Source: a virus
IMG/VR virus record: IMGVR_UViG_3300045988_105534
DNA: 64,000 nt
Strand: one strand, 5' to 3'
Below the pieces are notes generated by a model. The model ran no database searches. It had not been told where the DNA came from and saw nothing but the letters and a program-made list of their open reading frames with translations. Shown here in pieces: positions 13,067 through 57,824 of the stretch. Positions within the stretch are counted from its first letter, which is position 1. Each line of letters begins with the position of its first letter. A program made the translations under genes and the position numbers.

Positions 13067-13082
13067 GGGAATATTTGACGAG

Positions 13083-13108: not shown

Positions 13109-13335
13109 TCAAATTTATTATACACAAACTAATGATTCACTAAGCATATAATTGTTAATGGAAAGGGTGTTGATTACATAGAGAGCTAATAGGAATAGAA
13201 TAGGTTTCGATTAGGATTGGCACACTAATAGTTGGAATTAAATGTTGATTTTATTCCTATTGGTTTACGGAATACAGTTATACAAAAATAATGAGTGTAG
13301 AGAAAAATAAGACAGTTTAGAAAGGAAGATGAAGA

Positions 13336-21829: not shown

Positions 21830-21867
21830 TTGCACCTATTGACAGGGTGCAAAAAGTATGGTATATT
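21830..21867 (+). promoter_or_regulatory. Operator-flanked sigma70 promoter (copy 1): TTGCACC-N-TTGACA-GGGTGCAA ... TATATT
   Basis: TTGACA at 21839-44, 17-nt spacer, TATATT at 21862-67. A 7-bp inverted repeat TTGCACC/GGTGCAA brackets the -35. Near-identical to 63789-63826. Confidence 0.6.
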
Positions 21868-21917
21868 TAATTCATGAAAATAAAAAATACAACTGGGGAA
21901 AGTTGAGGGACGTAAAA

Positions 21918-29904: not shown

Positions 29905-30867
29905 ATGAGACAGATTACAGACACACATACAGGAGAAATTATCTCCGATACAGATTTAACATTAGAATACTTATTCGTTGGTGATTATGGCAAGAAAAAC
30001 AACATTAAGGCAGATTTTCTTGGGTATGATAAACGAATTGAAAAAGTTGAACATAAACCAGTTGATATTAGAGAAAAATTAGTTGTGACTGTTTCGTCAC
30101 AGAAAGGTTGCCCGATGCATTGCAATTTCTGTGATTGCCCTAAACTTGGATTTAAAGGAAACGCATCGTTGCCAGAGTTAATGATGGAGATCACTTCTGG
30201 AATTGCTTTATCAGGAATCAGACATGGAGAACGATTAAATGTACATTATGCAAGAATGGGAGAGCCTACATTTAATCAAAATGTAATTGCTTCGGCTAAA
30301 CAGATTGCACATATGTTAGCAGATCCAGACAGTGATATACATTTCAACACATATCATCCAGTAATTTCTACAATGATGCCAAAGGCAAATAATAATTTAA
30401 AAGAATTTTTACATAAATGGGTTAAAACTGGATTTGAATATGGTGAAGAAGATGGCTTTGGTCTTCAGTTCTCTATCAATACTCTTAATGAAGAACAAAG
30501 AAATGAAATGTTTCGAGGATGTTCATTATCTTTAACAGAGATCGGAGGCATTATTGATTGGTTACCAATGCCAAAGAAGCGTAAGTATACATTGAATTTT
30601 GCTGTTACATCCAAAAGTAATTTAGACGTAGATTTGATGAACAAGTATTTCGATAAGGAAAAATGCATTGTCAAGATTACTCCTATCCATGAAACAGTTG
30701 AAGCAGTTGACGAAGGATATGAGATTGTAACAGATTTTGATGTATATGAAAAATTTGAACAACCACTTGTAAAAGACGGTTGGGATGTAATTGTATTTGT
30801 TCCATCGAAAGAAGAAGACGCAGATAGAATTACATGTGGAAATTCATTAATTGCATTAGGAAATTAA
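29905..30867 (+). CDS. Radical SAM enzyme, RlmN/Cfr-like (putative RNA or DNA C-methylating enzyme)
   Basis: VSSQKGCPMHCNFCDC is a CX3CX2C cluster in RlmN-style VSSQ.GC context. RMGEPT is a glycine-rich SAM motif. C-terminal ITCGNSL resembles the RlmN AACGQL catalytic Cys motif. Confidence 0.6.
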   Translation: MRQITDTHTGEIISDTDLTLEYLFVGDYGKKNNIKADFLGYDKRIEKVEHKPVDIREKLVVTVSSQKGCPMHCNFCDCPKLGFKGNASLPELMMEITSGIALSGIRHGERLNVHYARMGEPTFNQNVIASAKQIAHMLADPDSDIHFNTYHPVISTMMPKANNNLKEFLHKWVKTGFEYGEEDGFGLQFSINTLNEEQRNEMFRGCSLSLTEIGGIIDWLPMPKKRKYTLNFAVTSKSNLDVDLMNKYFDKEKCIVKITPIHETVEAVDEGYEIVTDFDVYEKFEQPLVKDGWDVIVFVPSKEEDADRITCGNSLIALGN

Positions 30868-30887
30868 ATTGAAGAGGATGATTAAAC

Positions 30888-31220
30888 ATGGAAATTAAAG
30901 CAAAATGGACAGGTCGTGGTTTTGCACATTGCGTTGGAGAATGGAAGCTTTATGTTGATGGCAAAGATGTTACAGATAAGATTCCAGAAGACTTACGCAC
31001 AGAATCTATGAATACGTATAAGAGATATGAACGATGGTACTTTAAGGGTTGGGACGTAGAATGGGAATCATATTATGACGGACTAAAGCAAGATGAATGG
31101 ATTGAGTCTAATAAGTATTGGTTAGATGAAATTACAACAGACATTGATGTCCAGCGTCAGATCTTCAAAGCAATCAATGAAGAGGATTTTCGCACTAATT
31201 CTTGTGGCGGATGTATTTAG
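30888..31220 (+). CDS. Hypothetical protein (110 aa)
   Basis: GAAGAGGA Shine-Dalgarno. Confidence 0.55.
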   Translation: MEIKAKWTGRGFAHCVGEWKLYVDGKDVTDKIPEDLRTESMNTYKRYERWYFKGWDVEWESYYDGLKQDEWIESNKYWLDEITTDIDVQRQIFKAINEEDFRTNSCGGCI

Positions 31221-31285
31221 TAACAAGATTATGACATCTATATATGGTGTTGTGATAAATAAATTTTATAACAAAGGAGATATTT

Positions 31286-32746
31286 ATGATTGAAGTAATT
31301 GGAACAGTGGTACCAGTGGTTATTGCGGTAGGTGGCGTAGGAGCTATTATCGGTAGCGGTTATGTCAAAGCAAGTCCAGATAAAGCTTATATTATTTCTG
31401 GACTTAGAAAGACACCTAAGACATTAATTGGTAAGGCAGGGTTAAAAATCCCATTCTTTGAAAAAGCAGATCATCTTAATCTTGAGTTAATTCCAATTGA
31501 TGTTAAGACATCAAGTTCTGTGCCTACAGCAGATTATATCAATATCAATGTAGATGCAGCGGTCAATGTAAAGGTTAGCAGTAATCCAGAAAGATTAAAA
31601 CTTGCAGCAGAAAACTTCTTAAATAAGCCAGTAGGCGATATTGGACAGGTCGCAAGAGAAGTCCTTGAAGGTAATATGCGAGAGATCGTTGGAAAGATGA
31701 GCCTCGAAGAAATGGTTTCTGATCGTCAGAAATTTGCACAGCTTGTTACAGAAAATGCGAAGCCAGACCTTGCTGCAATGGGACTAGATATCATCAGTTT
31801 TAATGTGCAGAATTTTATGGATGATAATGATGTTATTGAAAATCTTGGTGTAGATAATGTTGTTAAAATTCAGAAGAAGGCTGCAATTTCCAGAGCTGAA
31901 AGCGAAAGAGATATTGAAAAAGCAAAAGCAATGGCTGAAAAAGAAGCGAATGATGCAAGGGTTGAGTCAGAAACAGCGATCGCAGAAAAGAATAACAATC
32001 TGGAAATTAAAAAATCTGAACTTGAGAAGATTTCAAAAGCAAAGAAGGCTGAGGCAGATGCAGCATACAAGATCCAGGAAGAAAAATCACGTAAAGAAAT
32101 TGAAATTGTAACTGCGGATGCTAATATTATGCGGCAGGAAAAAGAAATTGAACTGAAACGTAAAGACGTTGAGGTAACAGAGCAGACATTAGATGCACAG
32201 ATCAAGAAACAGGCAGAGGCTGAAAGATATGCCTCTCAGCAGAAAGCAGATGCAGATTTATATAAGAGACAGAAAGAGTCAGAAGCTAATAAATATGCTA
32301 AAGAAAAAGAAGCTGAATCTACAAAATATGCTATGGAGCAGGAAGCTGAAGGTATTCGTGCAAAGGGTGTAGCAGAAGCCGAGGCAATCAAAGCTAAAGG
32401 TATTGCTGAAGCAGAAGCAATCGAAAAGAAAGCAGAAGCCATGAAACAGATGGGTAAAGCATCTATTGTAGAAATGATGTGTCAGATGTTCCCAGAGGCA
32501 GTTAAAAATGCAGCCGCACCATTAGGAAATGTAGGAAGTATCACTATGTATGGAGAAGGAAACACAACAAAATTAACAAAAGATATTATGAATGTTGTGA
32601 ATCAGGTATCAGATGGTGTTAAAGGATCTACAGGTGTTGATCTTGCAAAGATGTTAAAAGATTTTGTTTCTGAAGATAACGAAGTAGAATCTACAGATAA
32701 TGTTGGTCAGCCAGAAGTATATTCAGACGATTATCGTGAGTTCTAA
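31286..32746 (+). CDS. Flotillin-like SPFH/Band-7 family membrane protein
   Basis: N-terminal transmembrane helix, then an SPFH domain, then a long E/A-rich coiled coil (AEAEAIKAKGIAEAEAIEKKAEA) and a C-terminal flotillin tail. 486 aa. Confidence 0.85.
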   Translation: MIEVIGTVVPVVIAVGGVGAIIGSGYVKASPDKAYIISGLRKTPKTLIGKAGLKIPFFEKADHLNLELIPIDVKTSSSVPTADYININVDAAVNVKVSSNPERLKLAAENFLNKPVGDIGQVAREVLEGNMREIVGKMSLEEMVSDRQKFAQLVTENAKPDLAAMGLDIISFNVQNFMDDNDVIENLGVDNVVKIQKKAAISRAESERDIEKAKAMAEKEANDARVESETAIAEKNNNLEIKKSELEKISKAKKAEADAAYKIQEEKSRKEIEIVTADANIMRQEKEIELKRKDVEVTEQTLDAQIKKQAEAERYASQQKADADLYKRQKESEANKYAKEKEAESTKYAMEQEAEGIRAKGVAEAEAIKAKGIAEAEAIEKKAEAMKQMGKASIVEMMCQMFPEAVKNAAAPLGNVGSITMYGEGNTTKLTKDIMNVVNQVSDGVKGSTGVDLAKMLKDFVSEDNEVESTDNVGQPEVYSDDYREF

Positions 32747-32760
32747 TAGGAGAAATTATT

Positions 32761-33495
32761 ATGACAATTATTATTATTTGTGTAATTATAGCGATTATCG
32801 CATATTTGCAATTTACTAAAAATGGAAAACAGATTAAAAATGTGGCATCTGGAACAGTTACAGAGAAAATCAAAGAAAATGCAATGACTCCAGAGGGAGC
32901 AAGAGCCAGATATAATACTGCAATTAAAGACAAGCAGGACTTCTACCAGAAAACAATGGGTACATACACAATGGTAGCTGGTCGATTGGCAACAATGGAA
33001 GATGACCTCAAAGAAACAAAAGAAGAAATTTCTAAAACCGAGGTAATGATCAACCAGTATCTTGATAACAATGATGATAAAAAAGCAATGTATTATGCTC
33101 AAAAATTAGCCACGTTAAAGGCACAAAAATCAGTGTACGAAAAGAAGATCCCAGAGTTGCAAGCAACAAAAGATAAGCAAGAAGAAATTAAAAACCAAGC
33201 ATATGATCAGCTTATTAAACTAAAAGGCGAAAAAGACACTGTAGTTCTCCAGATGGATGCAGATCAGCAGATTGCAGAATTGCAGAAAAATTTAGATCAA
33301 TACAATAGTTCAAATGCTGCTCAGGAAGGTTTGGAAGAGGTTCGAGAAGGAGCAAAGAAACTTAGCGAACAAGCCAAAGGCGTTGCTATTGCGTATGAAT
33401 CTAGTGCAGAAACATTGGATTATCATATGGAACAAGAAGAGCGACAGCAAGAAGCTAAAGCCATATTAGATCAGATGAAAAATGCTCGCAAATAA
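32761..33495 (+). CDS. Membrane-anchored coiled-coil protein, PspA/IM30-like (tentative)
   Basis: N-terminal transmembrane helix followed by about 200 aa of heptad-rich coiled coil. Adjacent to the flotillin gene, as in PspA-SPFH operons. Weak assignment. Confidence 0.35.
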   Translation: MTIIIICVIIAIIAYLQFTKNGKQIKNVASGTVTEKIKENAMTPEGARARYNTAIKDKQDFYQKTMGTYTMVAGRLATMEDDLKETKEEISKTEVMINQYLDNNDDKKAMYYAQKLATLKAQKSVYEKKIPELQATKDKQEEIKNQAYDQLIKLKGEKDTVVLQMDADQQIAELQKNLDQYNSSNAAQEGLEEVREGAKKLSEQAKGVAIAYESSAETLDYHMEQEERQQEAKAILDQMKNARK

Positions 33496-33625: not shown

Positions 33626-33763
33626 GGAAACATAGCTCAGTTGGTAGAGCAGGCAATACATAAACATTCATTTTTCTACCTCCATATAAGTATTTTTATT
33701 TATTTACATTTAATTTTCATCACATATAAATTGCCGACACAGGTTCGATTCCTGTTGTTTCCA
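33626..33763 (+). tRNA. tRNA gene (anticodon loop reads UACAUAA, so CAU-like for Met or Ile2) interrupted by a ~67-nt AT-rich insertion next to the anticodon loop
   Basis: Acceptor GGAAACA/TGTTTCC is perfect. D-arm GCTC-AGTTGGTA-GAGC. Anticodon stem GGCAA/TTGCC. T-arm ACAGG-TTCGATT-CCTGT. Discriminator A. 74 nt lie between the anticodon stem halves. Confidence 0.6.
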
Positions 33764-33765
33764 CT

Positions 33766-33802
33766 AAAAAAGACCTCAACCTAAATGGTTAAAGTCTTTT
33801 TG
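33766..33802. terminator. Bidirectional rho-independent terminator
   Basis: AAAAGAC ... GTCTTTTT hairpin with A-run and T-run on the two sides, between convergent transcription units. Confidence 0.6.
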
Positions 33803-39674: not shown

Positions 39675-40021
39675 TGAACCACTTCTTATATATTGAATCA
39701 CGGGAAGAAGAGAATACATCCCTCGATTCTAAACGTGTTTTATTAAATGAAGAAAATTACAAACATATTATTTCATCATTAGATCATTATCCACCGACGG
39801 CAGATGAAGTTAAGAGAGCAATTTGTATTTTGATAGGACGATTGATCTATAGAAGCGTTTGGAATATGGAATCTGATATTGATAGTTTAAATATGAGTTT
39901 ATCCCCGCCAAAAGAAATGACGGTTGCAGAAATCGAAAAAGAACTCGGTCATAAAGTAAAAATTGTAGAGGAGAAAGAATGCCAATGGCAAAAAAGAAAC
40001 AAGGAATGTCGTTTGAAATGA
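39674..40021 (+). CDS. Hypothetical protein (115 aa)
   Basis: GAGAAAGGAGAG Shine-Dalgarno. Confidence 0.6.
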   Translation: MNHFLYIESREEENTSLDSKRVLLNEENYKHIISSLDHYPPTADEVKRAICILIGRLIYRSVWNMESDIDSLNMSLSPPKEMTVAEIEKELGHKVKIVEEKECQWQKRNKECRLK

Positions 40022-40290
40022 TGATGCAAAATATGGAAATTAATCCAAGACAATTGTATCGTCGTAGTTCGTGGAAGAAGACACGAACAACTTATGATTA
40101 TGTGTTTATGATGTGCGAAGAAGAATTAAATGAGATTATTCCATTTGATAAAAAATATAAAATGAAACCACTCTTATGTAGAGACCAAAATGGAGTTATA
40201 ACATTGGGATGGTTGCCTACACAAGAGGATATTTTCGCAAATGATTGGGTTGAGCAAGGATGGGATTTTAACAGTAAAAGGAAGAGGTGA
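40006..40290 (+). CDS. DUF2829 (Tad2-like) protein, copy 1; alternative start 39979
   Basis: N-terminus MSFEMMMQ...YRRSSW and C-terminus GWLPTQEDIFANDWV match the conserved ends of DUF2829 proteins. Confidence 0.5.
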   Translation: MSFEMMMQNMEINPRQLYRRSSWKKTRTTYDYVFMMCEEELNEIIPFDKKYKMKPLLCRDQNGVITLGWLPTQEDIFANDWVEQGWDFNSKRKR

Positions 40291-40298
40291 GTAATTAA

Positions 40299-40583
40299 TT
40301 GAATTTTATAAAAGCAATGACTGCAATAAAAAAAGACAAAACGACTATAAGAAGAGGCATTTGGGGAAAGGAAAAGTATTTGAAAATTTATTCGTCAGAA
40401 TTAACTAATGTTTATTTTGAGTGTAATGATATGGGTGAATATAAGCCAGATTCAATTATTTTTTTATTTGATAAAGAAAACGCAGAAGTTTGGATACCTC
40501 TTGCGGAAGATGTATATGCAGATGACTGGGAAATATATGTTGAGTCAATTAATAAAGGTGAGCAGATAAAGGAGGAAAAATAA
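40299..40583 (+). CDS. DUF2829 (Tad2-like) protein, copy 2; TTG start
   Basis: MNFIKAMTAIKKDKTTIRRGIWGKEKYL ... VWIPLAEDVYADDWEIY; AGGAAGAGGTGAG Shine-Dalgarno before TTG. Confidence 0.55.
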   Translation: MNFIKAMTAIKKDKTTIRRGIWGKEKYLKIYSSELTNVYFECNDMGEYKPDSIIFLFDKENAEVWIPLAEDVYADDWEIYVESINKGEQIKEEK

Positions 40584-41536
40584 TGAAGTGTTTTTATCAT
40601 GTTGATCAAGACGGAATCGTGTCTGGATTCTACGTCAGAAAAGCTTGTGAACAGCGAGGTTTAGCATTTGAACCAGAGGACTTCCGAAAAATTAATTACG
40701 GTATGAAATTCCCGTTTCATGACATTAAACAGGATGAATTTGTATTCATTGTAGACTACAGCATTGAGCCAGAAGAAATGTGGCAGTTGTTTAGTATTAC
40801 AAAGAATGTATTTTGGATCGACCATCATCAATCTACGATTGAAACGTATAAAGATTTTAAGTGTGATGTGAAAGGAATTCGAATCACTGGAGAAGGTATT
40901 TCAGGAGCGAATTTGACATGGTTATATTTTAAAGAAATGTGTGACGAAGATTGGGAACAAATTGAGAGGACGGATGAGAAAAATGTAAAAAGATTACTCA
41001 ATATATATAAATATAAAGAAGATTATCCAAAACTGGCAGAATATACAGCCATGTGGGATACATTTTATTTTGGTGCAACGTCAAAAAAATTCATAAAAGC
41101 ATTTCACTATGCATTTGAATCGTATGATTTTGATGCGTTAAGTCCATTGCTAAACACGTTAAATGAAGATCAAGGAATTTATGAAGCAGCAAAAATTATT
41201 GGTGATATGATAACAGATGGCTTATCAATTATTGAGTATTTAGCAGCAAATGCAGAACAGTATCTTAGAGCATATGGTTTTGAAACCACATTTGAGGGAC
41301 ATAAAGTCTATGCTATCAACCGAGCATTAATCAATTCTGATTTCTTTGAATCTATTGATGCTTCTAAATATGATATGTTCATTGGTTTTTCGTTCAATGG
41401 TAGTATGTGGGAATATCAGTTACGATCAGCAGAACAGGATAAAGTAAATGTGTATGAGCTTGCTGTGAAATATGGTGGTGGCGGTCATCCAAATGCAGCT
41501 GGATTTAGAAGTGAGAAATACATGTTAGGAGTGTGA
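40583..41536 (+). CDS. DHH-DHHA1 family phosphoesterase (NrnA/GdpP-like nanoRNase / pAp / cyclic-nucleotide phosphodiesterase)
   Basis: HVDQDGIVSG and IDHHQST are DHH motifs; GGGHPNAAG is a DHHA1 motif. 317 aa, the size of stand-alone NrnA. Confidence 0.8.
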   Translation: MKCFYHVDQDGIVSGFYVRKACEQRGLAFEPEDFRKINYGMKFPFHDIKQDEFVFIVDYSIEPEEMWQLFSITKNVFWIDHHQSTIETYKDFKCDVKGIRITGEGISGANLTWLYFKEMCDEDWEQIERTDEKNVKRLLNIYKYKEDYPKLAEYTAMWDTFYFGATSKKFIKAFHYAFESYDFDALSPLLNTLNEDQGIYEAAKIIGDMITDGLSIIEYLAANAEQYLRAYGFETTFEGHKVYAINRALINSDFFESIDASKYDMFIGFSFNGSMWEYQLRSAEQDKVNVYELAVKYGGGGHPNAAGFRSEKYMLGV

Positions 41537-41539
41537 TGT

Positions 41540-42301
41540 ATGGATAAAGGTATAACTATAGAATTTTATAGGAATTATGAATTTGATATTGTGCGAGGTA
41601 TTTGTCTTGGAGATGAATCAACAAAAATTGACTTCCCTATAAATGATGAAACTTTAAACATAATGGCTTCAGATTTTCAATATAATGAACAAACTATACA
41701 GTTAGATTATGGTTATAAATATAGAAGAAAAAATTATGTAAAAATCGACGAAATGCAAGCTACATCAACAAATATATTGTCATGTAACGGAATTATATTA
41801 AAAGATGGCATTAAGTTTTTTATTGGTGAAGCAGTAATGGATGTTTCTAGTGGAAAAGAAATATATAAATTATATGACAAAGATGTATATAAAGATAAAA
41901 CTTATTATAATCAAACGAAAGAAATGGTATTTGAATGGGCAAAGAAAGATATATATAAAGTTGTAATGATGATGGACAGGATTGCAGGAGAGGCAATTAA
42001 TCGAGCGATGACCGAATATGCTAATCACGGATCTTTGTATCGTATGTTCTTTCCACCTAATATTCCTGAGCCACAATATAGTTATTCTATGCATGATTTA
42101 TACTTGATGACTGATCCTAATATAATGAAGGGTGACATTCGTAGGCGTATATGCTGCAAGGTACCTAATTTTGATAGGAGGGTGAGGAAATGGGATTATA
42201 GTGCAGATCGTTATGAACATTACTTAGTGTTGGATTACAGTAAGGAAATCAATAAATTCATTAAAGAACAGGAGGATAAAAAATGTGAAGAAATTAAATG
42301 A
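41540..42301 (+). CDS. Hypothetical protein (253 aa)
   Basis: TAGGAGTG Shine-Dalgarno. Confidence 0.6.
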   Translation: MDKGITIEFYRNYEFDIVRGICLGDESTKIDFPINDETLNIMASDFQYNEQTIQLDYGYKYRRKNYVKIDEMQATSTNILSCNGIILKDGIKFFIGEAVMDVSSGKEIYKLYDKDVYKDKTYYNQTKEMVFEWAKKDIYKVVMMMDRIAGEAINRAMTEYANHGSLYRMFFPPNIPEPQYSYSMHDLYLMTDPNIMKGDIRRRICCKVPNFDRRVRKWDYSADRYEHYLVLDYSKEINKFIKEQEDKKCEEIK

Positions 42302-42818
42302 TGAACAGCGAAAGCTGATTGAAGATAACTATTCTTTGATTTGGCATTTGCATGAAAAGTATTTTACAAAATTTACAGATTTTGATACATATATGGATCT
42401 TGGGCGTATGGCAATTTGTAAAGCAGCATTAAAATGGGACGAGTCTAAAGGAACTTTTGGTACATATCTCTTCTGGGTATTACGTTCAGAAGTGAATCAA
42501 TATTATACAAAATGGCACAGACCAACAGAAAAAATGAATAGGAATGCTGAATCGTTAGATACGCCATTGGCAGGATATGAACCAGAAGATGATATTACAA
42601 TCGGAACAACACTGATGAGTGGGGATAACGTAGAAGATGAGGTACTTACAAAGGTACATTTTCAAAATGAGTTTGATAAATTGGCACCGAGAAATAAAAA
42701 GATTATTGTTTTAAAGCAGAAAGGTTTAACACAAAGACAAATTGCAAGTCAGCTTGGAATCACTCATCAGTGGGTTAGTCAAAATATTGTACAGTTTAAG
42801 AAAGCATTATGTGGATAA
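42285..42818 (+). CDS. Sigma-70 family RNA polymerase sigma factor (phage-encoded), paralog 1
   Basis: Region 2-like FGTYLFWVLRSEV and region 4 HTH LTQRQIASQLGITHQWVSQNI. GTG start with AGGAGGA Shine-Dalgarno. N-terminus parallels 48538. Confidence 0.8.
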   Translation: MKKLNDEQRKLIEDNYSLIWHLHEKYFTKFTDFDTYMDLGRMAICKAALKWDESKGTFGTYLFWVLRSEVNQYYTKWHRPTEKMNRNAESLDTPLAGYEPEDDITIGTTLMSGDNVEDEVLTKVHFQNEFDKLAPRNKKIIVLKQKGLTQRQIASQLGITHQWVSQNIVQFKKALCG

Positions 42819-42831
42819 AAGAGGTGAGATC

Positions 42832-43665
42832 ATGACAATTGAAGAAGTAAAGGATTACATAAACTCGTCTACAGAGTATGATTTTTTGCGAGATTATCCG
42901 CATAAAATTGCTTTTCTAACATTAGGTGGAAGTTATGCCTATGGAACAAATACAGAGGATTCTGACATTGATTTACGTGGCGTTTTCCTTAGTGATAAAA
43001 GAGAGATTTTGTTGAACAATAATCAAAACAATCTTGAGAAGACCGATGATCGTAAAGACGTTGATACTGTGATACATTCGCATATTAAGATGATCAACAT
43101 GCTTGCTAAGGGTAATCCTACGTTTTTAGAGTTGCTATACTTTGCACCAGATCGCTATTTGTATGTATCCGATATTGGTATGGAGTTGATCAAAAATAGA
43201 GATATGTTCTTATCTAAGAGAGTTTATCATGCATATAAAGGATATATATGTGATTGCCTGACTCGAACGAGTTTTAAGTATTATAAAAATAAAGATTCAG
43301 AGAAAGAAAAGCAAAAGGCGGAACGATACGCTAATAAATCAATGATGCACGCAGTTCGATTATTGTTACAGGGCATTGAATTATTGCATAACGGAACAAT
43401 GTTAGGATCTATGGATGACATAGGAAAAGATCTTGTAAAGATCAAAGAAGGATATAATAGTACGCATAAAACATATAGATTTGGCAAACACAATGAGCAT
43501 ACAGAATATTTCCCAAATCAGTCATACGATGTTTTTATTGAAGGATTACTTTATCAATTTGATTATGATTATATGAATACTGATTTGCCAGACGAACCAG
43601 ACTGGGATCGTATCAATAACTTCTTGATGACAACAAATGAACGAATTGTGAGAGGAATGGTGTAA
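42832..43665 (+). CDS. Pol-beta superfamily nucleotidyltransferase
   Basis: IAFLTLGGSYAYGTNTEDSDIDLRGVF matches the GS-x(9-10)-DxD nucleotidyltransferase motif; AAGAGGTGAG Shine-Dalgarno. Confidence 0.65.
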   Translation: MTIEEVKDYINSSTEYDFLRDYPHKIAFLTLGGSYAYGTNTEDSDIDLRGVFLSDKREILLNNNQNNLEKTDDRKDVDTVIHSHIKMINMLAKGNPTFLELLYFAPDRYLYVSDIGMELIKNRDMFLSKRVYHAYKGYICDCLTRTSFKYYKNKDSEKEKQKAERYANKSMMHAVRLLLQGIELLHNGTMLGSMDDIGKDLVKIKEGYNSTHKTYRFGKHNEHTEYFPNQSYDVFIEGLLYQFDYDYMNTDLPDEPDWDRINNFLMTTNERIVRGMV

Positions 43666-43667
43666 AA

Positions 43668-43937
43668 ATGTATGTAAAGATTGGAGACGAAATTGCTTTT
43701 CATCCTGGCGAATGCTTAGAAGAATTTGTTGAATCTTGCAGGATGACTCCTTATCAGCTTGCGAGTAAAATTGGCATGGATGTTGATTATGTTCAAGGGT
43801 TGATTGACGGATTACAAAGTATTACAAAAGAATTTGCAAAAGCAATGGCGGATCATTATGGGTTCGCTGACGATGGGCAGTTCTGGTTAAATTTACAAGA
43901 GACATTTGATAAGAAAGTAGGTGATAGAGATGTTTAA
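43668..43937 (+). CDS. Hypothetical protein (89 aa)
   Basis: Translationally coupled with the upstream gene. Confidence 0.55.
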   Translation: MYVKIGDEIAFHPGECLEEFVESCRMTPYQLASKIGMDVDYVQGLIDGLQSITKEFAKAMADHYGFADDGQFWLNLQETFDKKVGDRDV

Positions 43938-44463
43938 ATTAATAAAACAACCACGTTCTGATAACGATAAATATACTAAATATGATGTTGTGCTTGATAA
44001 AGAGTATACTGTAGAAGAATTTATTGATGCGATTGCAGATGGAAGAAATGGAACGCATGGTCAAATTACAATAAAAAATGATAAAGAAGCCATTGAATCA
44101 TTGGTCTATAATATCGAGAGTATTGATTATAGACATTCTATACTTCAAAATGCTGAAGAAAAAATTAAACAAGTATGGGCAGATGGTAGCTGGTTAAAAA
44201 TTAATTATACTATCTTACTTGAAAACAAAAAGGAAGCACAAAAAGGTTCGCTCAGGTTCATTGTTAAGAAGCCGAATGAGGAAGAATCAGTGGTGGTTAT
44301 TTTTAAGAACAAATCCGATGGCACATATTCATTTGTTAATTTGACAAAAGAGCATATTTGTTCATGTAAATTTAAAACAATTGAGGAAGCCATCCAGGAT
44401 ATGAATGATCGCTTAAGAAAAGGATTGATTGAGTCCTATATTGTGAAAGGAGAAAGAAAATAA
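43921..44463 (+). CDS. Hypothetical protein (180 aa)
   Basis: GTAGGTGA Shine-Dalgarno; overlaps the upstream gene end. Confidence 0.55.
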   Translation: MIEMFKLIKQPRSDNDKYTKYDVVLDKEYTVEEFIDAIADGRNGTHGQITIKNDKEAIESLVYNIESIDYRHSILQNAEEKIKQVWADGSWLKINYTILLENKKEAQKGSLRFIVKKPNEEESVVVIFKNKSDGTYSFVNLTKEHICSCKFKTIEEAIQDMNDRLRKGLIESYIVKGERK

Positions 44464-44801
44464 TGGATATACATATTGGAGATTTTTGGCAGAGTAAATG
44501 TAATCCAAAAGTAATTCAACATGTAGTTAATTTTTCATTTAGAATGGGTGGAGTCCCAAGTAGTAAAGATATGCTACTGGTCTGTGAAGAATTTCATTAT
44601 ACAAAGATAGGTGAGAATCCTGCCTCTGTCAAAGAAGATTCCAGATTCTTTTCACATATTACAGTGGATAATTTTAAAAAGATGAATCAATGTATTCTAA
44701 GTGCTGAGAGGATTATGAAAGATACTCAGGCATTTAAAACAGATAAAGATATTTTGGATTATTTAACGAAGAAAGTGGAGGAGAAATTAAATGCAAAATA
44801 A
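44463..44801 (+). CDS. Hypothetical protein (112 aa)
   Basis: AAAGGAGAAAG Shine-Dalgarno. Confidence 0.55.
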   Translation: MDIHIGDFWQSKCNPKVIQHVVNFSFRMGGVPSSKDMLLVCEEFHYTKIGENPASVKEDSRFFSHITVDNFKKMNQCILSAERIMKDTQAFKTDKDILDYLTKKVEEKLNAK

Positions 44802-45264
44802 TATATTTCAGATTTATTTGGCTGGCGGTATGCAGGATTTATCATTTGAAGAGCAGAATACTTGGAGAGAAAGAATTTGCAATCAAATTATTGCTATGCG
44901 TAGAATACTTAATGTTAATATGAAAGAAGTCAACATTATTAACCCCGTTGATTATTACAATTTTCAAACAGAGTTACATGATACAGAAAAAGAAGTAATG
45001 AGATTTGATACAAATTTTGTTAGAAATAGTGATCTTGTTGTGGTAAATGCGAATGATCCGAAGAGCATTGGTACATCTATGGAGATTGCAATTGCATATG
45101 AACGTCATATTCCTGTACTGATTTTGAATACAGAAAAGAAAAGATTGCATGCTTGGTGGGTGCAAATGTCTGACAAGATATTTGACGATGAGAAAAAATT
45201 ATGTACATATATATATGACTTTTATCTCAGGATGAATCATAGTAGTATTCGAGCATGGGTGTAA
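44791..45264 (+). CDS. Nucleoside 2-deoxyribosyltransferase-fold protein (NDT / dNMP N-hydrolase-like)
   Basis: IYLAGGM near the N-terminus; SDLVVVN ... GTSMEIAIAYERHIPVL carries the catalytic Glu in a GT-x-x-E context typical of the NDT/Rcl fold. Confidence 0.55.
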   Translation: MQNNIFQIYLAGGMQDLSFEEQNTWRERICNQIIAMRRILNVNMKEVNIINPVDYYNFQTELHDTEKEVMRFDTNFVRNSDLVVVNANDPKSIGTSMEIAIAYERHIPVLILNTEKKRLHAWWVQMSDKIFDDEKKLCTYIYDFYLRMNHSSIRAWV

Positions 45265-45425
45265 ATGCAATGATATAAAATAGGAATTTGAGGCAAAATG
45301 AAAGGAGTTGAAGTACTATCACAGCAGAAAAACAAGGCAAGTTTATTATTTTCCATCTGGATGATGGTAAAACTTGTAAATATGATTTATCAAATGGTGA
45401 TTGCTATGGCAAGAGCGGCAAGAAA

Positions 45426-46460
45426 GTGAAAGCTTTGAACAATATTCTGTCTGGACATTCAGCTGATGAATTGGATAAATTGTTTGTGTCCGATCCACAT
45501 TATGCAGAGTTTCTAAAATATGTAAATTGGCGAAGAAATTGTGAAATGGGAAGAACTACATGGGGCTTCATTGATTATAATTTAGGAACTTTGTTTGAAT
45601 ATGCAAATAAGTATTCTATGTGCGAGCAGTTCTTTGCTATAGGTTTTACACACAAACAAGTCACAGAAGATTTTAAATATTCAATTAATGAAGTACCAAA
45701 ATGGTTGAGAAATTATTGTCTTGGTGTGAAGAATAGACGATTGTTAAGTAATGATTTTGTTGATTTTTATAAGATGTATCCAGATTATGTACAAACGATT
45801 TTACAGACAGAGTATATGACATTAACTAAAGAATATTTAATAAATTTCTTTGAGGATAATCATAGATATCGTTTTACGAAAATTTTGGAGGCTTTAAATC
45901 AGGATTATGGCTATAATCTTGTAGATGTGTTTGTTTATATAGATAGAATAATTACATTTGAAGCTGCTACCAATAGTATAAATTGGTTACTCGGAGAATT
46001 GCGTGATTATGCCCGTATGATGGACGCAATCAGTCATAAATTTGATAGATATCCAAGACATTTCAAAACAACAATGGATATTGTCACAAGAAATTACAAA
46101 AGATTACAAAAAGAATTTTCGGAAGAAGTCTTTAAGAGCCGTATTAATAAAGAATACGAATTTACATATAAAGGACTGAGATTCTTTTATCCAGACTCCA
46201 CTCAAGACATTAAAGACGAAGCGGTGCAGCAAAATAATTGTGTGGCAAGTTACATAGATCGAGTCATTGATGGCGAATGCCATATCATGTTTTTGAGAAA
46301 CGCAAAAGAACCAAACAAATCCTTAGTGACGATTGAAATACAAAATGGACGAATCGTACAAGCACTGCAAAGATTCAATGATCCTCTAACTGCCGATCAA
46401 CAAGAAGCGGTCGATGCATGGAATGAACATTTTAGTAAGAAAGGTAAGGTGGCAGCATGA
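45426..46460 (+). CDS. Hypothetical protein (344 aa; GTG start)
   Basis: Long ORF with a weak Shine-Dalgarno; start uncertain. Confidence 0.5.
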   Translation: MKALNNILSGHSADELDKLFVSDPHYAEFLKYVNWRRNCEMGRTTWGFIDYNLGTLFEYANKYSMCEQFFAIGFTHKQVTEDFKYSINEVPKWLRNYCLGVKNRRLLSNDFVDFYKMYPDYVQTILQTEYMTLTKEYLINFFEDNHRYRFTKILEALNQDYGYNLVDVFVYIDRIITFEAATNSINWLLGELRDYARMMDAISHKFDRYPRHFKTTMDIVTRNYKRLQKEFSEEVFKSRINKEYEFTYKGLRFFYPDSTQDIKDEAVQQNNCVASYIDRVIDGECHIMFLRNAKEPNKSLVTIEIQNGRIVQALQRFNDPLTADQQEAVDAWNEHFSKKGKVAA

Positions 46461-48537: not shown

Positions 48538-49080
48538 ATGTCGTTGAAATTAAATGACGAACAGAGAAAATTAGTAGAACAAAATCATAATTTGATTTAC
48601 TCTGCTATGACAAAATGCGGTATCCGCAGACAAGATTTTGATGACTATTATGGATTCGCTGCTATTGGGTTGTGTAAGGCAGCAATTGATTATGATAAAA
48701 CACGATCTAAATCATTTTCGACATATGCGTATTTATGTATACAAAATGAAATAACGGTATATAACAAATACAGATTTCGGCAGAGAAGAAAGGGTGATAT
48801 GAATACTATTTCATATAATCATATGTTAGATGATTGGGATGAAGACAAAAATGAAAATTCATTTCTTTTAAAGGATGAAGAAAATTTTGAAAAAAATATT
48901 ATTTTTAAGTTGAATTTTCAAGATAAATGTTACACACTAAATAATAAGGACAGAATGATTGTTGATTTAAAATCAAAAGGTTATACATATCAAGAAATTG
49001 CAAAAATGTTTGGTACATCATTTCAAGCGATACAACAAAAGATTAAAAAAATGCGATCAACAACATTTTCCAGATTATAA
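48538..49080 (+). CDS. Sigma-70 family RNA polymerase sigma factor (phage-encoded), paralog 2
   Basis: MSLKLNDEQRKLVEQNHNLIY; region 2-like FSTYAYLCIQNEI; C-terminal HTH YTYQEIAKMFGTSFQAIQQKI. Confidence 0.8.
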   Translation: MSLKLNDEQRKLVEQNHNLIYSAMTKCGIRRQDFDDYYGFAAIGLCKAAIDYDKTRSKSFSTYAYLCIQNEITVYNKYRFRQRRKGDMNTISYNHMLDDWDEDKNENSFLLKDEENFEKNIIFKLNFQDKCYTLNNKDRMIVDLKSKGYTYQEIAKMFGTSFQAIQQKIKKMRSTTFSRL

Positions 49081-49291: not shown

Positions 49292-50536
49292 ATGAATTTT
49301 GAAATGACAGGGAAACTCAGCATTAGCAAGGACACAGAAAAATTTCACCCTTACAGTGAGACAAAATATGAAAAGTCAGGCTGGGTACGAAGAAGACTGT
49401 TATTTAATGTGACATGCGGTGACAGTAGACATATGTTAACTGTTGATGCAGGAAGTTTCGAAGATGGACACGGTGATGTCTATACATATTCCAAACCAGA
49501 ATACGACCCAAGTGGTAAGAAAATCAAAGATGGAGAAAAAATTCAGATTCCTTTTAAAGACAGATTAACATCTCCAAAACTGGAAGAAGTATCAGATTTC
49601 AGAAAATTTGTTTTTGATTTAGAAAAACCAGGAAGAAGATACAAATTAAAAAATGCTTTAGAAAAAATCAAAGAAGGTAAAGATCTTACAGATAAAGATC
49701 TTGCAGAAGTTGGATTAACATCTGTAGACGAACTTGAAAAAGAGTATGAGAAGAGTAAGAAGAGACATCATGAATTTATTTCTGAATGGGATTACGTAGA
49801 ATTCATCAAAAAAGTCATTGATAGTGGCAAATATGATGACTGTAACTTCCATATTAGAGGACGTGGAGATTATTCATATTCTGATGACAAAGAAAGATTT
49901 TATGAGAATCTGATCCCTAACAGAATTTATCTCGCAGCAGATGATGATGAACCATATTCTACAGCAACAATGAGTTTTGTATTTGGAGTTGATAGCTTAG
50001 ACGAAACAAGTGTTGAGGAAGACGGTAAATATTACGTTAATGGATTTGTCTTTGAATACATCCAGAGCAGAAAGAAAAAATTAGCCGTTCCAACAACAGT
50101 TGTTATTCCAGTTCCTGATAAAGAAAAAGACGAAAGCGGATACAAGAAGGCTAATGGCTTAAAGAGAAAATTCATTGTCGACGATGAAGACAAATACATG
50201 GAATACGGCATTGTCGTAGATATGATCAATGGTTCTCAGCGTGTAGAACTTACAGAGGACATGCTCTCAGAAGAACAGAGAGATGATCTTGAATGTGGAA
50301 TCATTACTATGGAAGAGATTCAAAAAGCGATTGGTGGAAGTGCTTATGGAGATAAGGTCAAAGAGTATCAGTTAATTAAGCCATCACGCAACGGTATTAA
50401 AGAGGGCGTTCAGGACACGGTTTATACAGCAGAAGATATGGAAGTACCTGCATTAGAGATTGACGAGAACGAAGATTTATTCTCAGAAGAATCAATCGAT
50501 AATGATAATGATGACGATGATGACTTATTCGATTAG
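49292..50536 (+). CDS. Hypothetical protein (414 aa) with SSB-like acidic C-terminal tail
   Basis: AAGAGGAGGAA Shine-Dalgarno. C-terminus DNDNDDDDDLFD resembles the SSB DDDIPF tail. N-terminus MNFEMTGKLSI is weakly OB-fold-like. Confidence 0.6.
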   Translation: MNFEMTGKLSISKDTEKFHPYSETKYEKSGWVRRRLLFNVTCGDSRHMLTVDAGSFEDGHGDVYTYSKPEYDPSGKKIKDGEKIQIPFKDRLTSPKLEEVSDFRKFVFDLEKPGRRYKLKNALEKIKEGKDLTDKDLAEVGLTSVDELEKEYEKSKKRHHEFISEWDYVEFIKKVIDSGKYDDCNFHIRGRGDYSYSDDKERFYENLIPNRIYLAADDDEPYSTATMSFVFGVDSLDETSVEEDGKYYVNGFVFEYIQSRKKKLAVPTTVVIPVPDKEKDESGYKKANGLKRKFIVDDEDKYMEYGIVVDMINGSQRVELTEDMLSEEQRDDLECGIITMEEIQKAIGGSAYGDKVKEYQLIKPSRNGIKEGVQDTVYTAEDMEVPALEIDENEDLFSEESIDNDNDDDDDLFD

Positions 50537-54968: not shown

Positions 54969-56562
54969 CATTTTGAACGATTGCAGAGGACTTTTTGAAG
55001 ATGAGGTATTTGAAATTATCATGCAGGAGCGTGGTATTGACGATCCAGAACATTTTCTAAATCCTACGGAAGATGATTTACTTTCTCTTGATGACTTAAA
55101 AAATATTGATAAAGCATACAGACTCGTGATGAGTGCGGTGAATGAAGATAAACGTATTGCAGTACATTTTGATACAGATACTGACGGCATCACATCTGGT
55201 GCCGTTATGACACGATATTTAAAAAACATGACAGAAAATCCAGTAGATGTATACATTAACCGAGGCAAACAGCATGGATTAGCAAATCAGGACATTGCTA
55301 AGTTTTATGGGTATGATTTACTGATTGTCGTTGATAGTTTGGATAAAGACGAGACTCAGTATAAGGATTTAAAAGAAACAGGAGTTGATGTGATTGTGTT
55401 AGACCACCATGCCATCGATCCAGATGTTCCTTATGACAACTATTGCACATTAGTTTCTTCTCAGAGAGAATATGAAAATCCACAGTTATCTGGTGCAGGT
55501 GTTGTCTGGAAGTTTTGCAAGTATATTGATGAGCAGAATGGTACAGATTATGCAGATAATTTGGTCGATCTAGCAGGCGTTGGGCTGATTGCAGATATGA
55601 TGGATATGAGAGTAATGGAGAATCGTTACATTGTATCCGAAGCTTTGAAAGAAATTAGAAATCCTGCGATTAAGAAGATTATTGGTGGATTTGAATTCAA
55701 CAGCACAGCAGTTGCTTTTAGTATTGCACCGTTGGTTAATGCTGCAAACAGAATGGATCAGAATGAAATTGCTCTAAATGCTTTCCTTGAAGATGACAAT
55801 AAAAAGTTACGAGGATATATTAAACAATTAAAGCAATGCAAAGAAGACCAAAATGAAGAGGTCGCACAGCTGATGCCAATGATTGCGGAACAGTGTGAAG
55901 CTCAGAGTGATAAAAAGATGATCACAACTTTTATCGACACTGATTATGGTATTTCTGGGTTAATTGGAAACAAATTGCTTGAAAAATACCAGAAGCCGAT
56001 TCTTGTGCTAAAGAAAAATGAAGATACATATGCAGGATCTATGAGAGCAGTTGGTGTAAAAGACTTCCGACAGATGTGTAATAACAGTCAGTTGGCTGAA
56101 GCAAATGGACATGAACTTGCCAGTGGTATTGAAATTCCTAGAAAGAACTTTGCTGAGTTCACCTCTTATATAGAAGAAACTCTTCCAGATAAGCCAGAAG
56201 ATACAACAGTTGATGTCGATATTATGCTTGATATTTCAGACATCACAAGAAAAATGGTTGACATGATTAAGAAAATTGATCGTATTTCTGGGCAAGGATT
56301 TAAACCTGTAAGAGTTTATATTGAAGAGATTGACGACTATGACATTGGTCAGATGAGCAATTATAAACATCTTGTCCTGAAACCATGTAACAATGATAAA
56401 TTGTGGATCATTAAATGGAACTATGATGGATCGTTTGAGGATATGGAAGACCATTCTATGATGAATGATGAGTTTTGTGCAGTTACTACACTTGATTGCG
56501 GATTCTTTGGAAGAAAGTTTGTGCTGAAAGCTGTGTGTGATTCACTTGAAGAGGTGGGATGA
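54943..56562 (+). CDS. RecJ-like DHH-family single-stranded DNA exonuclease (start uncertain; alternative ATG at 55021)
   Basis: AVHFDTDTDGITSGAV and VLDHHAID are DHH motifs; RecJ-like linker; 513-539 aa. Confidence 0.7.
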   Translation: MKTSKKKYNILNDCRGLFEDEVFEIIMQERGIDDPEHFLNPTEDDLLSLDDLKNIDKAYRLVMSAVNEDKRIAVHFDTDTDGITSGAVMTRYLKNMTENPVDVYINRGKQHGLANQDIAKFYGYDLLIVVDSLDKDETQYKDLKETGVDVIVLDHHAIDPDVPYDNYCTLVSSQREYENPQLSGAGVVWKFCKYIDEQNGTDYADNLVDLAGVGLIADMMDMRVMENRYIVSEALKEIRNPAIKKIIGGFEFNSTAVAFSIAPLVNAANRMDQNEIALNAFLEDDNKKLRGYIKQLKQCKEDQNEEVAQLMPMIAEQCEAQSDKKMITTFIDTDYGISGLIGNKLLEKYQKPILVLKKNEDTYAGSMRAVGVKDFRQMCNNSQLAEANGHELASGIEIPRKNFAEFTSYIEETLPDKPEDTTVDVDIMLDISDITRKMVDMIKKIDRISGQGFKPVRVYIEEIDDYDIGQMSNYKHLVLKPCNNDKLWIIKWNYDGSFEDMEDHSMMNDEFCAVTTLDCGFFGRKFVLKAVCDSLEEVG

Positions 56563-57824
56563 TTATGGCAGGAAAAGAAGTATTTTGTTCAGTCTGCGGT
56601 TTATCATCTACTTTGGACGGACATTTTTGGAAAGAAAAGAAGTTGTGCAACAGACACAATATGCAGTTAGAAAAACATGGAAAACTGTTAGATAAAGATA
56701 TAGTGATCCCTAAAAAGAGACATAGATGGACTCCAGAAGAAGAAGTCAGATTAGAAGAGTTGTATAAACAAGGAGTTTCTTTTGAAAAAATTAGTAAACA
56801 AATGAATCTATCCGTGGCAGCCATAGCGGCTCGAAGTCGTCATTTGAATCTTGGCAATAAGTATATGAGGTCTAATAATCCTAATTTTAAAGCCACATAT
56901 CAGGATTATGATTGGTGTTATGAAAGATATGTTGTTAAGGGAATGACTCATCAAGAAATGGCAGATGAATGTGGTGTCTCGTTAAGAGTTATTCAGAAAT
57001 GGTGTTCTGAAGTTCATAAATTAAATTGTTGGACTTTCAAAAACAATAAGACATTAACCGATAAACAGTATCAAATTATTTTATTTGGCACATTAGGGGA
57101 TGGGCATATTGATAAAAGAGAGACGCAACCTTTGTATATTGAATGTCATTCTATAGCAGAAAAGGATTACGTGTTTTGGAAATATGAAGAATTAAAAGAT
57201 TTATGTAACTCTGAGCCAAAGTATTATGAAGGTGGCTATAAAGATTTTGGTTCTGGTACAAAGTATTGGTGTAAACCACATTACAGATTTGAGACAAGAA
57301 TTATTAATCAATTGAAGGACATTCGAGACATGCCAAGAATCAATAAGATTTGGCAATTGAATGAATTTGGATTATCTCTTCATTGCTTAGACGATGGATG
57401 CAGAGGTAAATCAGCGTGGGAATTATGTTTGGCAGAATATACTCAGCAAGAAATTGATTTATATATCAAGCTGTGTAAAAAGAGATTTGGGTTATATGCT
57501 AAACAGCAGACAGATAAAAGATATATAAGATTTGATTCAGATTCAAGTAGAATTATTGATCAAATTATTTTAAACAATATTCCTAATTCGCTTGACATTA
57601 TCAAAAAGAAGATATTAGAAAACGATAAAATTTCTAAAAAAGTAAGATACATTTATGTTGTCATGCAGAACGGAGAACAGATTGGTTTATCTACATATTG
57701 TAGATCTCATGGTATTCCATATGAAAAGACAAGAAAATATGTCATTGAGCACAATATCTCTCGAATTCAAGAAGCTGATCTACTAAATAGATTAAAAGCT
57801 GGAGGATTAATGAATGCGGTATAA
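56559..57824 (+). CDS. Free-standing LAGLIDADG-family homing endonuclease with N-terminal zinc-ribbon/HTH region
   Basis: Two LAGLIDADG-like motifs, ILFGTLGDGHI and LHCLDDGCRGKS; N-terminal CSVCG...CNRH and an HTH-like RWTPEEEVRLEELYKQGVSFEKIS. Confidence 0.6.
   Translation: MIMAGKEVFCSVCGLSSTLDGHFWKEKKLCNRHNMQLEKHGKLLDKDIVIPKKRHRWTPEEEVRLEELYKQGVSFEKISKQMNLSVAAIAARSRHLNLGNKYMRSNNPNFKATYQDYDWCYERYVVKGMTHQEMADECGVSLRVIQKWCSEVHKLNCWTFKNNKTLTDKQYQIILFGTLGDGHIDKRETQPLYIECHSIAEKDYVFWKYEELKDLCNSEPKYYEGGYKDFGSGTKYWCKPHYRFETRIINQLKDIRDMPRINKIWQLNEFGLSLHCLDDGCRGKSAWELCLAEYTQQEIDLYIKLCKKRFGLYAKQQTDKRYIRFDSDSSRIIDQIILNNIPNSLDIIKKKILENDKISKKVRYIYVVMQNGEQIGLSTYCRSHGIPYEKTRKYVIEHNISRIQEADLLNRLKAGGLMNAV

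Follow-up and report, generated by a model that had tools for sequence, protein, structure and literature searches.

Tad2-like proteins and a DHH–RlaP gene linkage upstream of the replication module in a lineage of human-gut Firmicutes phages

Gene content and genomic setting

The DNA analysed here (hereafter the window) is a 64-kb stretch of the viral record IMGVR_UViG_3300045988_105534 (IMG/VR), in which every gene lies on the + strand and the GC content is ~33%. Within it we examined the interval 39979–46460, which contains eleven genes (all +), including a pair of Tad2-like proteins, a stand-alone DHH/DHHA1 phosphoesterase and an RlaP-family nucleotidyltransferase. A sequence-only reading had described this interval as an accessory island enriched in nucleotide-handling genes and embedded between tiny genes; its gene content and coordinates are borne out by open reading frame (ORF) calls, Pfam and PHROGs, and runs of small genes are indeed seen on both sides. 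Between 39674 and 45264 adjacent genes either overlap or are separated by no more than 13 nucleotides (nt), the sole real gap being at 45265–45425.

The first two genes encode the Tad2-like (DUF2829) proteins, denoted Tad2a (103 amino acids (aa); 39979–40290) and Tad2b (94 aa, with a TTG start; 40299–40583). They are followed by the DHH/DHHA1 phosphoesterase (DHH; 317 aa; 40583–41536), which has the architecture of NrnA, Pde2 and DhhP, a hypervariable ORFan (253 aa; 41540–42301), a sigma-70-family factor with regions 2 and 4 (177 aa; 42285–42818; PF04542, PF04545 and PF08281, and phrog_351 at 9e-27), and the RlaP-family Pol-beta RNA 3′-end nucleotidyltransferase (277 aa; 42832–43665). Three small genes come next, all of which had been listed as unknowns. 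Two are ORFans, one of 177–180 aa (43921–44463) with no match in Pfam, PHROGs or PADLOC, the other of 112 aa (44463–44801) with no family match in Pfam or PHROGs; the third (89 aa; 43668–43937) is a small Xre/HigA-like helix–turn–helix (HTH) protein (HTH_31 at 24 bits, below cut-off; phrog_1381, ‘plasmid antitoxin with HTH domain’, 3e-10). The last two genes encode a nucleoside 2-deoxyribosyltransferase (NDT)/Rcl-fold enzyme (157 aa; 44791–45264) and a 344-aa protein (45426–46460) which was also considered unknown and which we identify as PcfJ-like (PF14284, 70.4 bits; phrog_9653, 3e-69). For the latter, a PDB sequence search gave nothing informative and a literature search on PcfJ returned only C. 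elegans pCFJ plasmids; the protein recurs 1.3–1.8 kb downstream of DHH in the outgroup loci L066, L147 and L150.

The right end of the window codes for a YorF-like protein, an AAA_24 protein, a DnaB-like helicase, a RecJ-like DHH protein, a DnaE-type polymerase and RecD2, and constitutes an SPbeta-like ‘yor’ replication module (YorF...DnaE). The Pfam families YorF and YorH occur at the positional counterparts of this module in relatives, and the window DnaE shows only ~42% identity to its counterparts in large Firmicutes phages, phiCD211 and c-st among them. A megablast search of the region against 50,697 phage records returned no match and no near-identical DNA; human-gut metagenome contigs carry proteins exactly matching those of the region, and IMG/VR holds dozens of relatives of 140–170 kb. 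The lineage is one of ~160-kb human-gut Firmicutes phages, in which the region lies directly upstream of the SPbeta-like replication module; the source name of one NDT homolog, Faecalibacillus intestinalis, is a weak hint as to the host.

Most of the interval is lineage backbone

Relatives were taken from IMG/VR and metagenomes. The close-relative set comprises 57 loci found via the DHH gene (59 DHH-centred loci in presence counts), a second, independent anchor was provided by the YorF-like gene (49292–50536), and more distant relatives were found by exact-protein look-ups.

The notion of a discrete accessory island does not survive this comparison. GC is 0.30–0.34 within the interval and in its flanks alike, which rules out an island as a compositional unit, and a scan for promoters and terminators gave the same counts as shuffled sequence, such that no operon boundaries can be called. 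Most genes are as conserved as those flanking them, and presence varies only for the Tad2 pair and the 112-aa ORF (the latter present in 32/59 loci). The order DHH–X–sigma–RlaP–small–small–NDT–(PcfJ)–...–second sigma–YorF, in which X denotes the ORF between DHH and sigma, is retained in relatives down to 54% DHH identity; it is kept by L297, L299 and L300 (DHH 54% and 64% identical to the window protein in L299 and L300, respectively), where YorF or its positional equivalent is followed by AAA-...-DnaB. At the own-clade loci retrieved via the independent YorF-like anchor, DHH, sigma and RlaP were present in 17/17. We therefore regard most of the 6.5 kb as lineage backbone rather than cargo. 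In sister clades, in which the anchor gene is 55–62% identical, the whole 10 kb upstream differs, small flanking genes included, with each window gene present in 0–3/58 loci; the plasticity thus belongs to the whole pre-replication region and not to the interval first singled out.

The backbone is mosaic and dispensable. Among the 57 loci, seven genes define 26 allele haplotypes, with two or three allele classes each for sigma, RlaP, the 180-aa ORF and NDT, freely combined; the ORFan at 43921–44463, found in 52/59 loci, has two allele classes (~57% and ~93% identity). L015, L017 and L024 are without everything from RlaP to the second sigma gene. That second gene (48538–49080, +) encodes a paralog 32% identical to the sigma factor at 42285–42818, and in both L015 and L017 a sigma1/sigma2 chimera stands in place of the two genes, with the 6 kb between them gone (42.8–48.5 kb of the window). 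In the L015 chimera (11745–12281), 29/30 of the first 30 aa match sigma1 and the remainder resembles sigma2, the signature expected of a natural deletion by recombination between the sigma paralogs, which we take these two loci to represent. Such deletions in relatives agree with the earlier view of the region as non-essential accessory content.

The kept gene order, just upstream of a replication module, would also be expected were the genes to serve nucleotide salvage for replication, with DHH acting as a nanoRNase/adenosine 3′,5′-bisphosphate (pAp) phosphatase that finishes host-RNA breakdown, the NDT-fold enzyme exchanging or releasing bases for deoxynucleoside triphosphate precursors, and no direct link to defence. 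The DHH fold is nearest to NrnA/NrnB nanoRNases, a structural homolog in Bacillus phage AR9 is annotated as oligoribonuclease NrnB, and NDT is classically a salvage enzyme. However, natural variants delete RlaP through NDT and PcfJ yet keep the replication module, and sister clades with the same module have no detectable Tad2 pair, sigma, HTH or NDT upstream of it (DHH, RlaP and PcfJ in ≤3/58 each). Allele swapping and the adjoining hot spot (below) are typical of conflict genes, not of housekeeping, and salvage leaves the linkage of DHH with RlaP and CCA-adding enzymes unexplained. We consider salvage improbable: relatives do show the synteny which was to be expected of housekeeping genes, without the genes being housekeeping salvage.

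An exchange slot upstream of DHH carries the Tad2-like pair

Between the gene at 39674 (g39674) and DHH lies a slot which, in the 57 loci, exists in five states at one fixed position: the Tad2 pair (16 loci), the pair plus a 137-aa NDT-like gene (14), the NDT-like gene alone (13), a 209-aa nucleotidyltransferase (NTase)-like gene (7), or empty (7). The 137-aa cargo matches PF15891 (28 bits) and the 209-aa cargo has a weak poly(A)-polymerase-head signature; a PDB sequence search with the latter gave nothing informative, and PHROGs offered no annotation for the alternative cargo or the flanking ORFans. Tad2a is present in 30/59 DHH-centred loci and its DNA is ≥99% identical in 27/29 carriers, whereas the adjoining DHH gene is never ≥99% identical (median 94.2%). 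The Tad2 cassette is thus younger than its flanks and has been spread by recombination, apparently passing through the phage population recently. Variable cargo, which had been suspected for the block as a whole, is seen in this part of it, the DHH–sigma–RlaP–NDT–PcfJ backbone being conserved in order.

The arrangement has the form of an anti-defence hot spot. As in the SPbeta-group anti-Gabija locus and anti-CRISPR loci, different small genes occupy a fixed position and one of them comes from a validated anti-defence family; here the slot spans only ~0.3–1.4 kb of the 6.5 kb, and the alternative cargo consists of small NDT-like and NTase-like genes. Mobile elements are drawn to the stretch upstream of DHH too: genes for TnpB (OrfB_IS605/Cas12f-like) are inserted 1.6–2.4 kb upstream of DHH in L297 (2096–3703), L299 (7467–8375) and L300 (7542–9137), and in L062 (1073–2314) TnpB lies several kb upstream, ahead of the RlaP–CCA–DHH operon described below.

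Both Tad2-like proteins are small, single-domain members of the family, as the sequence-only reading had recognised, with PF11195 scores of 34.2 (Tad2a) and 46.3 bits (Tad2b) against a cut-off of 25, and their PDB matches are SPO1 Tad2, ModTad2 and HgmTad2. The nearest solved relative of Tad2a is HgmTad2/AcrIIA7 (PDB: 8kbi; E=0.005), with which it aligns over its C-terminal half, including the motif GWLxxQxDxxANDW. Tad2b is nearest to SPO1 Tad2 (Gp34.65; PDB: 8sme; E=2e-4) and aligns end to end (residues 1–79); alignment from residue 1 fits its TTG start. The pocket residues considered (SPO1 W25, N26, W73, D79 and T78; HgmTad2 W21, N22, W87, S90, T92 and D93) were mapped by hand on the alignments. 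Tad2a keeps the equivalents of HgmTad2 W21, W87, L88 and D93, with N22 replaced by Lys and T92 by Glu; Tad2b keeps those of SPO1 W73 and D79, its first Trp being shifted by one residue, and N26, T65, H71, S76 and T78 are not kept. The Trp, Trp, Asp core of the glycocyclic ADP-ribose (gcADPR) pocket, between and by which the ligand is sandwiched and held, is therefore found in both copies, with the Asn changed to Lys or Gly and the Thr to Glu.

Only 13 residues can be aligned between Tad2a and Tad2b, indicating that they are old paralogs and not a recent duplication; the two copies could cover different signals, the ligands of the family being broad (gcADPR, His-ADPR, N7-cADPR, cyclic CMP and UMP, and cyclic dinucleotides). 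The proteins share with SPO1 Gp34.65 and HgmTad2/AcrIIA7 a single domain of ~90–100 aa, the two pocket Trp residues and the Asp, the C-terminal xDW motif and a place, among the early genes of a Firmicutes or gut phage, in a slot of variable content; they differ in being two divergent tandem copies, in the replacement of the N26/N22 and T78/T92 contacts, and in being predicted sponges. A sponge role is plausible on these grounds: once assembled, the paralogs most likely would act as sponges, sequestering nucleotide-derived immune signals of the kind used by Thoeris, CBASS or Pycsar.

The DHH/DHHA1 phosphoesterase

The DHH Pfam domain scores below the gathering cut-off in this protein. Its identity is secure despite this, given the match to phrog_4771 (1e-34), the invariant motifs and a confident structural model. 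Across 33 homologs H6, D10, D58, D80-H81-H82, D159 and G298-GGG-H302 are invariant and D8 is nearly so, such that DHH motifs I–IV and the DHHA1 GGGH motif are all present. The AlphaFold2 (AF2) model (pLDDT 90.7) has the two-domain DHH plus DHHA1 fold, and Foldseek against the PDB matched it to NrnA/Pde2, DhhP, TM1595 and PggH with probability 1.0; matches in BFVD to DHH phosphohydrolases of jumbo phages and giant viruses (TM 0.64–0.74) were better than those in the PDB. The window protein thus shares the two-domain fold, all the DHH motifs, GGGGH and a length of ~300–320 aa with NrnA/Pde2, DhhP, TM1595, PggH and the CRISPR-associated NrN. It differs from the solved enzymes in being only 12–16% identical to them, in grouping structurally with uncharacterised jumbo-phage and giant-virus DHH phosphohydrolases, and in having other genomic partners.

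The DHH gene starts at the Tad2b stop codon, an adjacency which favours a reading of the interval as one locus directed against nucleotide immune signals. On that account the Tad2-like proteins would sequester the signals, DHH would cleave cyclic or linear oligonucleotides (cyclic oligoadenylates, cyclic dinucleotides or molecules resembling the S-adenosyl methionine–AMP conjugate SAM-AMP), and the NDT-fold enzyme would cut the N-glycosidic bond of the products. In 27 clade loci and in L299 a small NDT-like gene is the immediate neighbour of DHH, as it is, with the order reversed, in L275, which also has RlaP and a Tad2-like protein; moreover, the enzymes at the top of the fold search degrade cyclic di-AMP, pApA and pGpG. 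For immune signals proper, however, the window protein shares only the generic DHH fold with NrN, and no PADLOC model gave a meaningful or significant match anywhere in the region, which also led us to reject the region as a defence system in its own right. The validated phage signal-degrading enzymes (Acb1, Apyc1 and AcrIII-1) have other folds and no known homology to the window DHH. As to precedent, the CRISPR-associated NrN cleaves SAM-AMP (PMC10600005), and a DHH–DHHA1 nuclease degrades cyclic tetra-adenylate (cA4), with phage DHH phosphodiesterases predicted to counter such signals (PMC7824862); the literature searched yields no phage DHH enzyme shown to degrade an immune signal.

Among distant DHH-centred IMG/VR loci (L158–L207), ~15–17 loci of another lineage have reverse-transcriptase-like (YSDD), ThiF/E1-like and JAB/MPN-like ORFs 4–5 kb upstream of DHH, as called by reading the sequences.

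DHH is linked to RlaP and CCA-adding enzymes

RlaP matches PF10127 at full length (87.2 bits; profile positions 14–248/249), as well as phrog_388 (2e-42), and contains the catalytic GS...DxD motif (LGGSYAYGTNTEDSDID), read from the sequence as GGSYAYG...DSDID; its start is likely the ATG at 42832 rather than the TTG at 42742. The Pol-beta nucleotidyltransferase of the sequence-only reading is hence present, but as an RNA 3′-end enzyme and not a maker of nucleotide signals (PMC12776372). A MNT/HEPN or AbiE/MenT-type toxin–antitoxin reading of the NTase and HTH pair was considered and rejected, a full-length RlaP belonging to another family. RlaP adds 1–2 nucleoside monophosphates to an RNA 3′-OH and helps to restore tRNA function (PMC12776372), and Iyer et al. 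predicted a role in RNA repair for jumbo-phage RlaP, alongside CCA-adding enzymes and Thg1 (PMC7824862).

In the window lineage DHH and RlaP lie 1.3 kb apart within the conserved backbone. In the nearest outgroups, with DHH 39–44% identical, DHH is the last or second-to-last gene of an operon RlaP–(313-aa ORFan)–CCA-adding enzyme–DHH, in which the end of the CCA gene and the start of DHH are at most a few bases apart; the arrangement occurs in L058/L059, L062, L066, L071, L143, L146–148 and L150–153. In L062 Thg1 directly follows DHH, and in L064 RlaP is directly adjacent to DHH. Among 85 distant DHH-centred IMG/VR loci, tblastn found RlaP within 10 kb in 17 and a CCA-adding enzyme in 16; by profile search RlaP is present in 15/83 of the de-duplicated distant set, compared with 1/54 YorF-anchored sister-clade loci without DHH. 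The sister-clade locus L275 has the order RlaP–311 aa–DHH–NDT-like–...–Tad2-like–YorF, i.e. the same domain set in divergent sequences. The conserved ~313-aa ORFan (L062 5701–6642; homologs in L059, L066 and L275), which matches nothing in Pfam or PHROGs, always has RlaP on one side and the CCA-adding enzyme (or DHH) on the other, and could be another part of the putative repair operon.

RlaP-containing RNA-repair systems are known from T4 (NrdC.11) and from Pseudomonas (RtcB–RlaP–RtcA operons). The window protein has the full-length PF10127 domain and catalytic GS/DxD residues in common with these, and is phage-encoded as in T4 and jumbo phages; it differs in that no RNA ligase or RtcA was detected nearby, its partners being DHH/DHHA1 and, in outgroups, the CCA-adding enzyme. 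The presence of DHH and CCA partners instead of a ligase suggests a ligase-independent repair of RNA 3′ ends.

This linkage bears directly on the single locus against immune signals. The DHH gene is kept in clade members with an empty slot or other cargo and so lies outside the Tad2 cassette, its conserved outgroup partners are RlaP and the CCA-adding enzyme, and Tad2 is near DHH in only 1/83 distant loci. Because DHH persists whatever the slot holds, and because its partners across lineages are RNA-end enzymes, we rank signal degradation below RNA/tRNA end repair, which the outgroup RlaP–(313 aa)–CCA–DHH operon favours, and consider it doubtful as an account of the whole interval.

The NDT-fold enzyme, sigma factors and hypervariable ORFan

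The NDT/Rcl-fold assignment is based on PF05014 (32.1 bits; cut-off 28.8), with a further match to PF15891 (27.3 bits). On alignment with 7m5h (E=0.013), D73, D81 and the nucleophile E98 are in register, and Y9, S92 and E98 are invariant in 28 homologs. The protein thus shares with the NDT/Rcl (DNPH1) family an above-cut-off PF05014 domain and the conserved Tyr, two acidic residues and nucleophile Glu; it differs in being very divergent, as the E-value to its nearest solved relative indicates. Two allele classes exist among close relatives. On the basis of these residues the enzyme is predicted to be catalytically intact, and it is kept in the backbone; its substrate class (nucleoside, deoxynucleoside monophosphate (dNMP) or signal nucleotide) cannot be read from sequence.

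An enzyme of this fold might supply or remove a base or dNMP for modified DNA, as the sequence-only reading had proposed, and in aquatic phages NDTs do occur together with the 2,6-diaminopurine (dZ) pathway, one of these enzymes preferring dA (10.1101/2025.10.22.683976). However, the region and the window ORFs scanned yielded no modification enzyme (PurZ, DatZ, hydroxymethylase, glucosyltransferase or other), and the NDT gene is deleted in some natural variants; a DNA-modification pathway is very improbable here.

Both sigma factors are ordinary phage regulators. The ORFan which precedes the first of them is the most variable gene of the backbone: the DHH–sigma slot always contains exactly one ORF, of at least six allele classes (175–267 aa; 33–49% identity) between flanks that are ~95% identical, and conservation is limited to a C-terminal FIKEQExKKCEE(I/T)K tail, the part that overlaps the start of sigma. 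The 253-aa allele in the window has no Pfam, PHROG or PADLOC match; a profile search of 1.84 billion representatives gave only 12 matches, all of the same family, and an AF2 model built from 7 sequences (pLDDT 38.6) was unusable. Replacement by very different alleles in near-identical phages suggests diversifying selection.

Proposed functions of the region

Taken as a whole, we propose that the region is a dispensable, co-directional early/middle backbone with separate host-takeover and counter-defence functions, not one pathway, in which Tad2-like sponges stand beside a DHH–RlaP system for RNA-end repair. We judge the chances that this proposal is correct to be about even. Its components belong to known families, and the region is plausible as counter-defence but is not one new system. 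The initial suggestion of counter-defence is therefore retained with respect to the Tad2 family, the slot and a plausible RNA-end repair, and is given up as a single signal-directed mechanism; that of one pathway to make, hydrolyse or sequester nucleotides does not fit a backbone which is conserved in order to 54% identity and whose nucleotidyltransferase, RlaP, is an RNA-repair enzyme.

NrnA-type DHH enzymes have both pAp 3′-phosphatase and short-RNA exonuclease activity, and ribotoxins leave RNA with a 3′-phosphate or cyclic phosphate. The toxSAS/CapRel defences are reported to pyrophosphorylate the tRNA CCA end (PMC9712102; 10.1101/2021.04.30.441581). Since RlaP needs a 3′-OH, such ends would have to be dealt with before it can act, from which we infer that DHH is its end-healing or trimming partner. 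In the proposed scheme DHH would heal or trim damaged RNA ends, chiefly tRNA 3′ ends that bear a 3′-phosphate, 2′,3′-cyclic phosphate or pyrophosphate, or that have lost a few nucleotides to exonucleolytic trimming; RlaP would then put back the nucleotides that are missing, and the two together would act against host defences of the ribotoxin type. The sigma factor and the small HTH protein would act as phage regulators.

Several observations weigh against this proposal. All of the activities and targets that it invokes are predicted, from domains, motifs and synteny, and the ‘early’ timing of expression is assumed from gene position. RlaP is defined by its association with RNA ligases, and scans of the region and of most window ORFs ≥150 aa detected no RNA ligase domain, whether of RtcB, of a 5′-phosphate ligase or of another kind; likewise, tblastn found no CCA-adding enzyme or Thg1 in the 64-kb window. 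About 65/85 distant DHH-centred loci have no RlaP or CCA gene nearby, and the enrichment of RlaP near DHH (Fisher p=0.005 on tallied counts) involves loci which are not independent, such that the p-value is only indicative. Thg1 was rejected as a specific DHH partner, there being no enrichment near DHH (14/85) compared with elsewhere (9/58). The DHH gene abuts the Tad2 pair here and the small NDT-like gene in L275 and L299, a position that fits signal degradation equally well. Finally, both Tad2-like proteins have other residues in place of two contacts seen in solved gcADPR pockets, the L12-loop Asn and the Thr beside the Asp, which makes their ligand, or any binding, uncertain.

A wider form of the RNA-end repair proposal, which we advance only tentatively and with less confidence than the account of the region itself, would extend it to the virus-wide family of stand-alone DHH/DHHA1 proteins. 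These would be the healing or trimming part of a ligase-independent tRNA-end repair, acting with RlaP, a CCA-adding enzyme and sometimes Thg1 in large Firmicutes phages, and reversing toxSAS/CapRel pyrophosphorylation, HEPN-type trimming or MenT-type additions; the slot (with Tad2-like, small NDT-like or minimal NTase genes) and the hypervariable ORF would together form a reservoir of counter-defence genes.

Other features of the window

At 33626–33763 (+) there is an Rfam tRNA match (46 bits) with perfect acceptor, D and T arms and an encoded CCA, in which the anticodon stem (GGCAAU/AUUGCC) holds an A/U-rich stretch of ~69 nt, not a 7-nt loop. ARAGORN calls no tRNA at this position. The match overlaps a mechanical ORF (33641–33784), which is kept in 45 relatives, and the GC skew falls to ~0 there; the element may be an interrupted tRNA or a tRNA-like element. 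Immediately to its left (29905–33495, +) a weak radical-SAM-like protein, an SPFH/flotillin protein (486 aa) and a weak PspA/IM30-like protein are encoded in a row. At the equivalent position L299 has cation ATPase, vWA-TerF-like, TerD and PspA-like genes, and these and their window counterparts may constitute a membrane-stress module.

An ORF at 21858–22367 (+) has a PemK/MazF-like endoribonuclease toxin domain (57 bits) and lies close to genes for a tyrosine recombinase (19732–20682) and a calcineurin-like phosphoesterase (20679–21425); in L060 a PemK gene is present downstream of DHH, with an integrase next to it. The left half of the window also encodes, on the + strand, a DNA polymerase III beta-clamp-like protein, a T5orf172/GIY-YIG-like protein and three Bro-N proteins, one of them fused to KilAC/ANT (7378–8526, 8906–9628, 11413–14430 and 24706–25530). 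Within the replication module, a LAGLIDADG homing-endonuclease-like ORF with N-terminal HTH motifs (56559–57824, +) lies between the RecJ-like (YorK-like) gene and DnaE.

Implications

If the proposed functions are correct, this abundant lineage of gut phages would combine two different, neighbouring layers of counter-defence, one based on signal sponges and the other on RNA-end repair, and the natural variants with and without each cassette would provide a ready test series. A search for new anti-defence genes would do well to look at the swap slot and the hypervariable ORF. The linkage of DHH with RlaP and CCA-adding enzymes, for its part, offers a concrete and testable role for a family of DHH proteins that occurs widely among jumbo phages and giant viruses.

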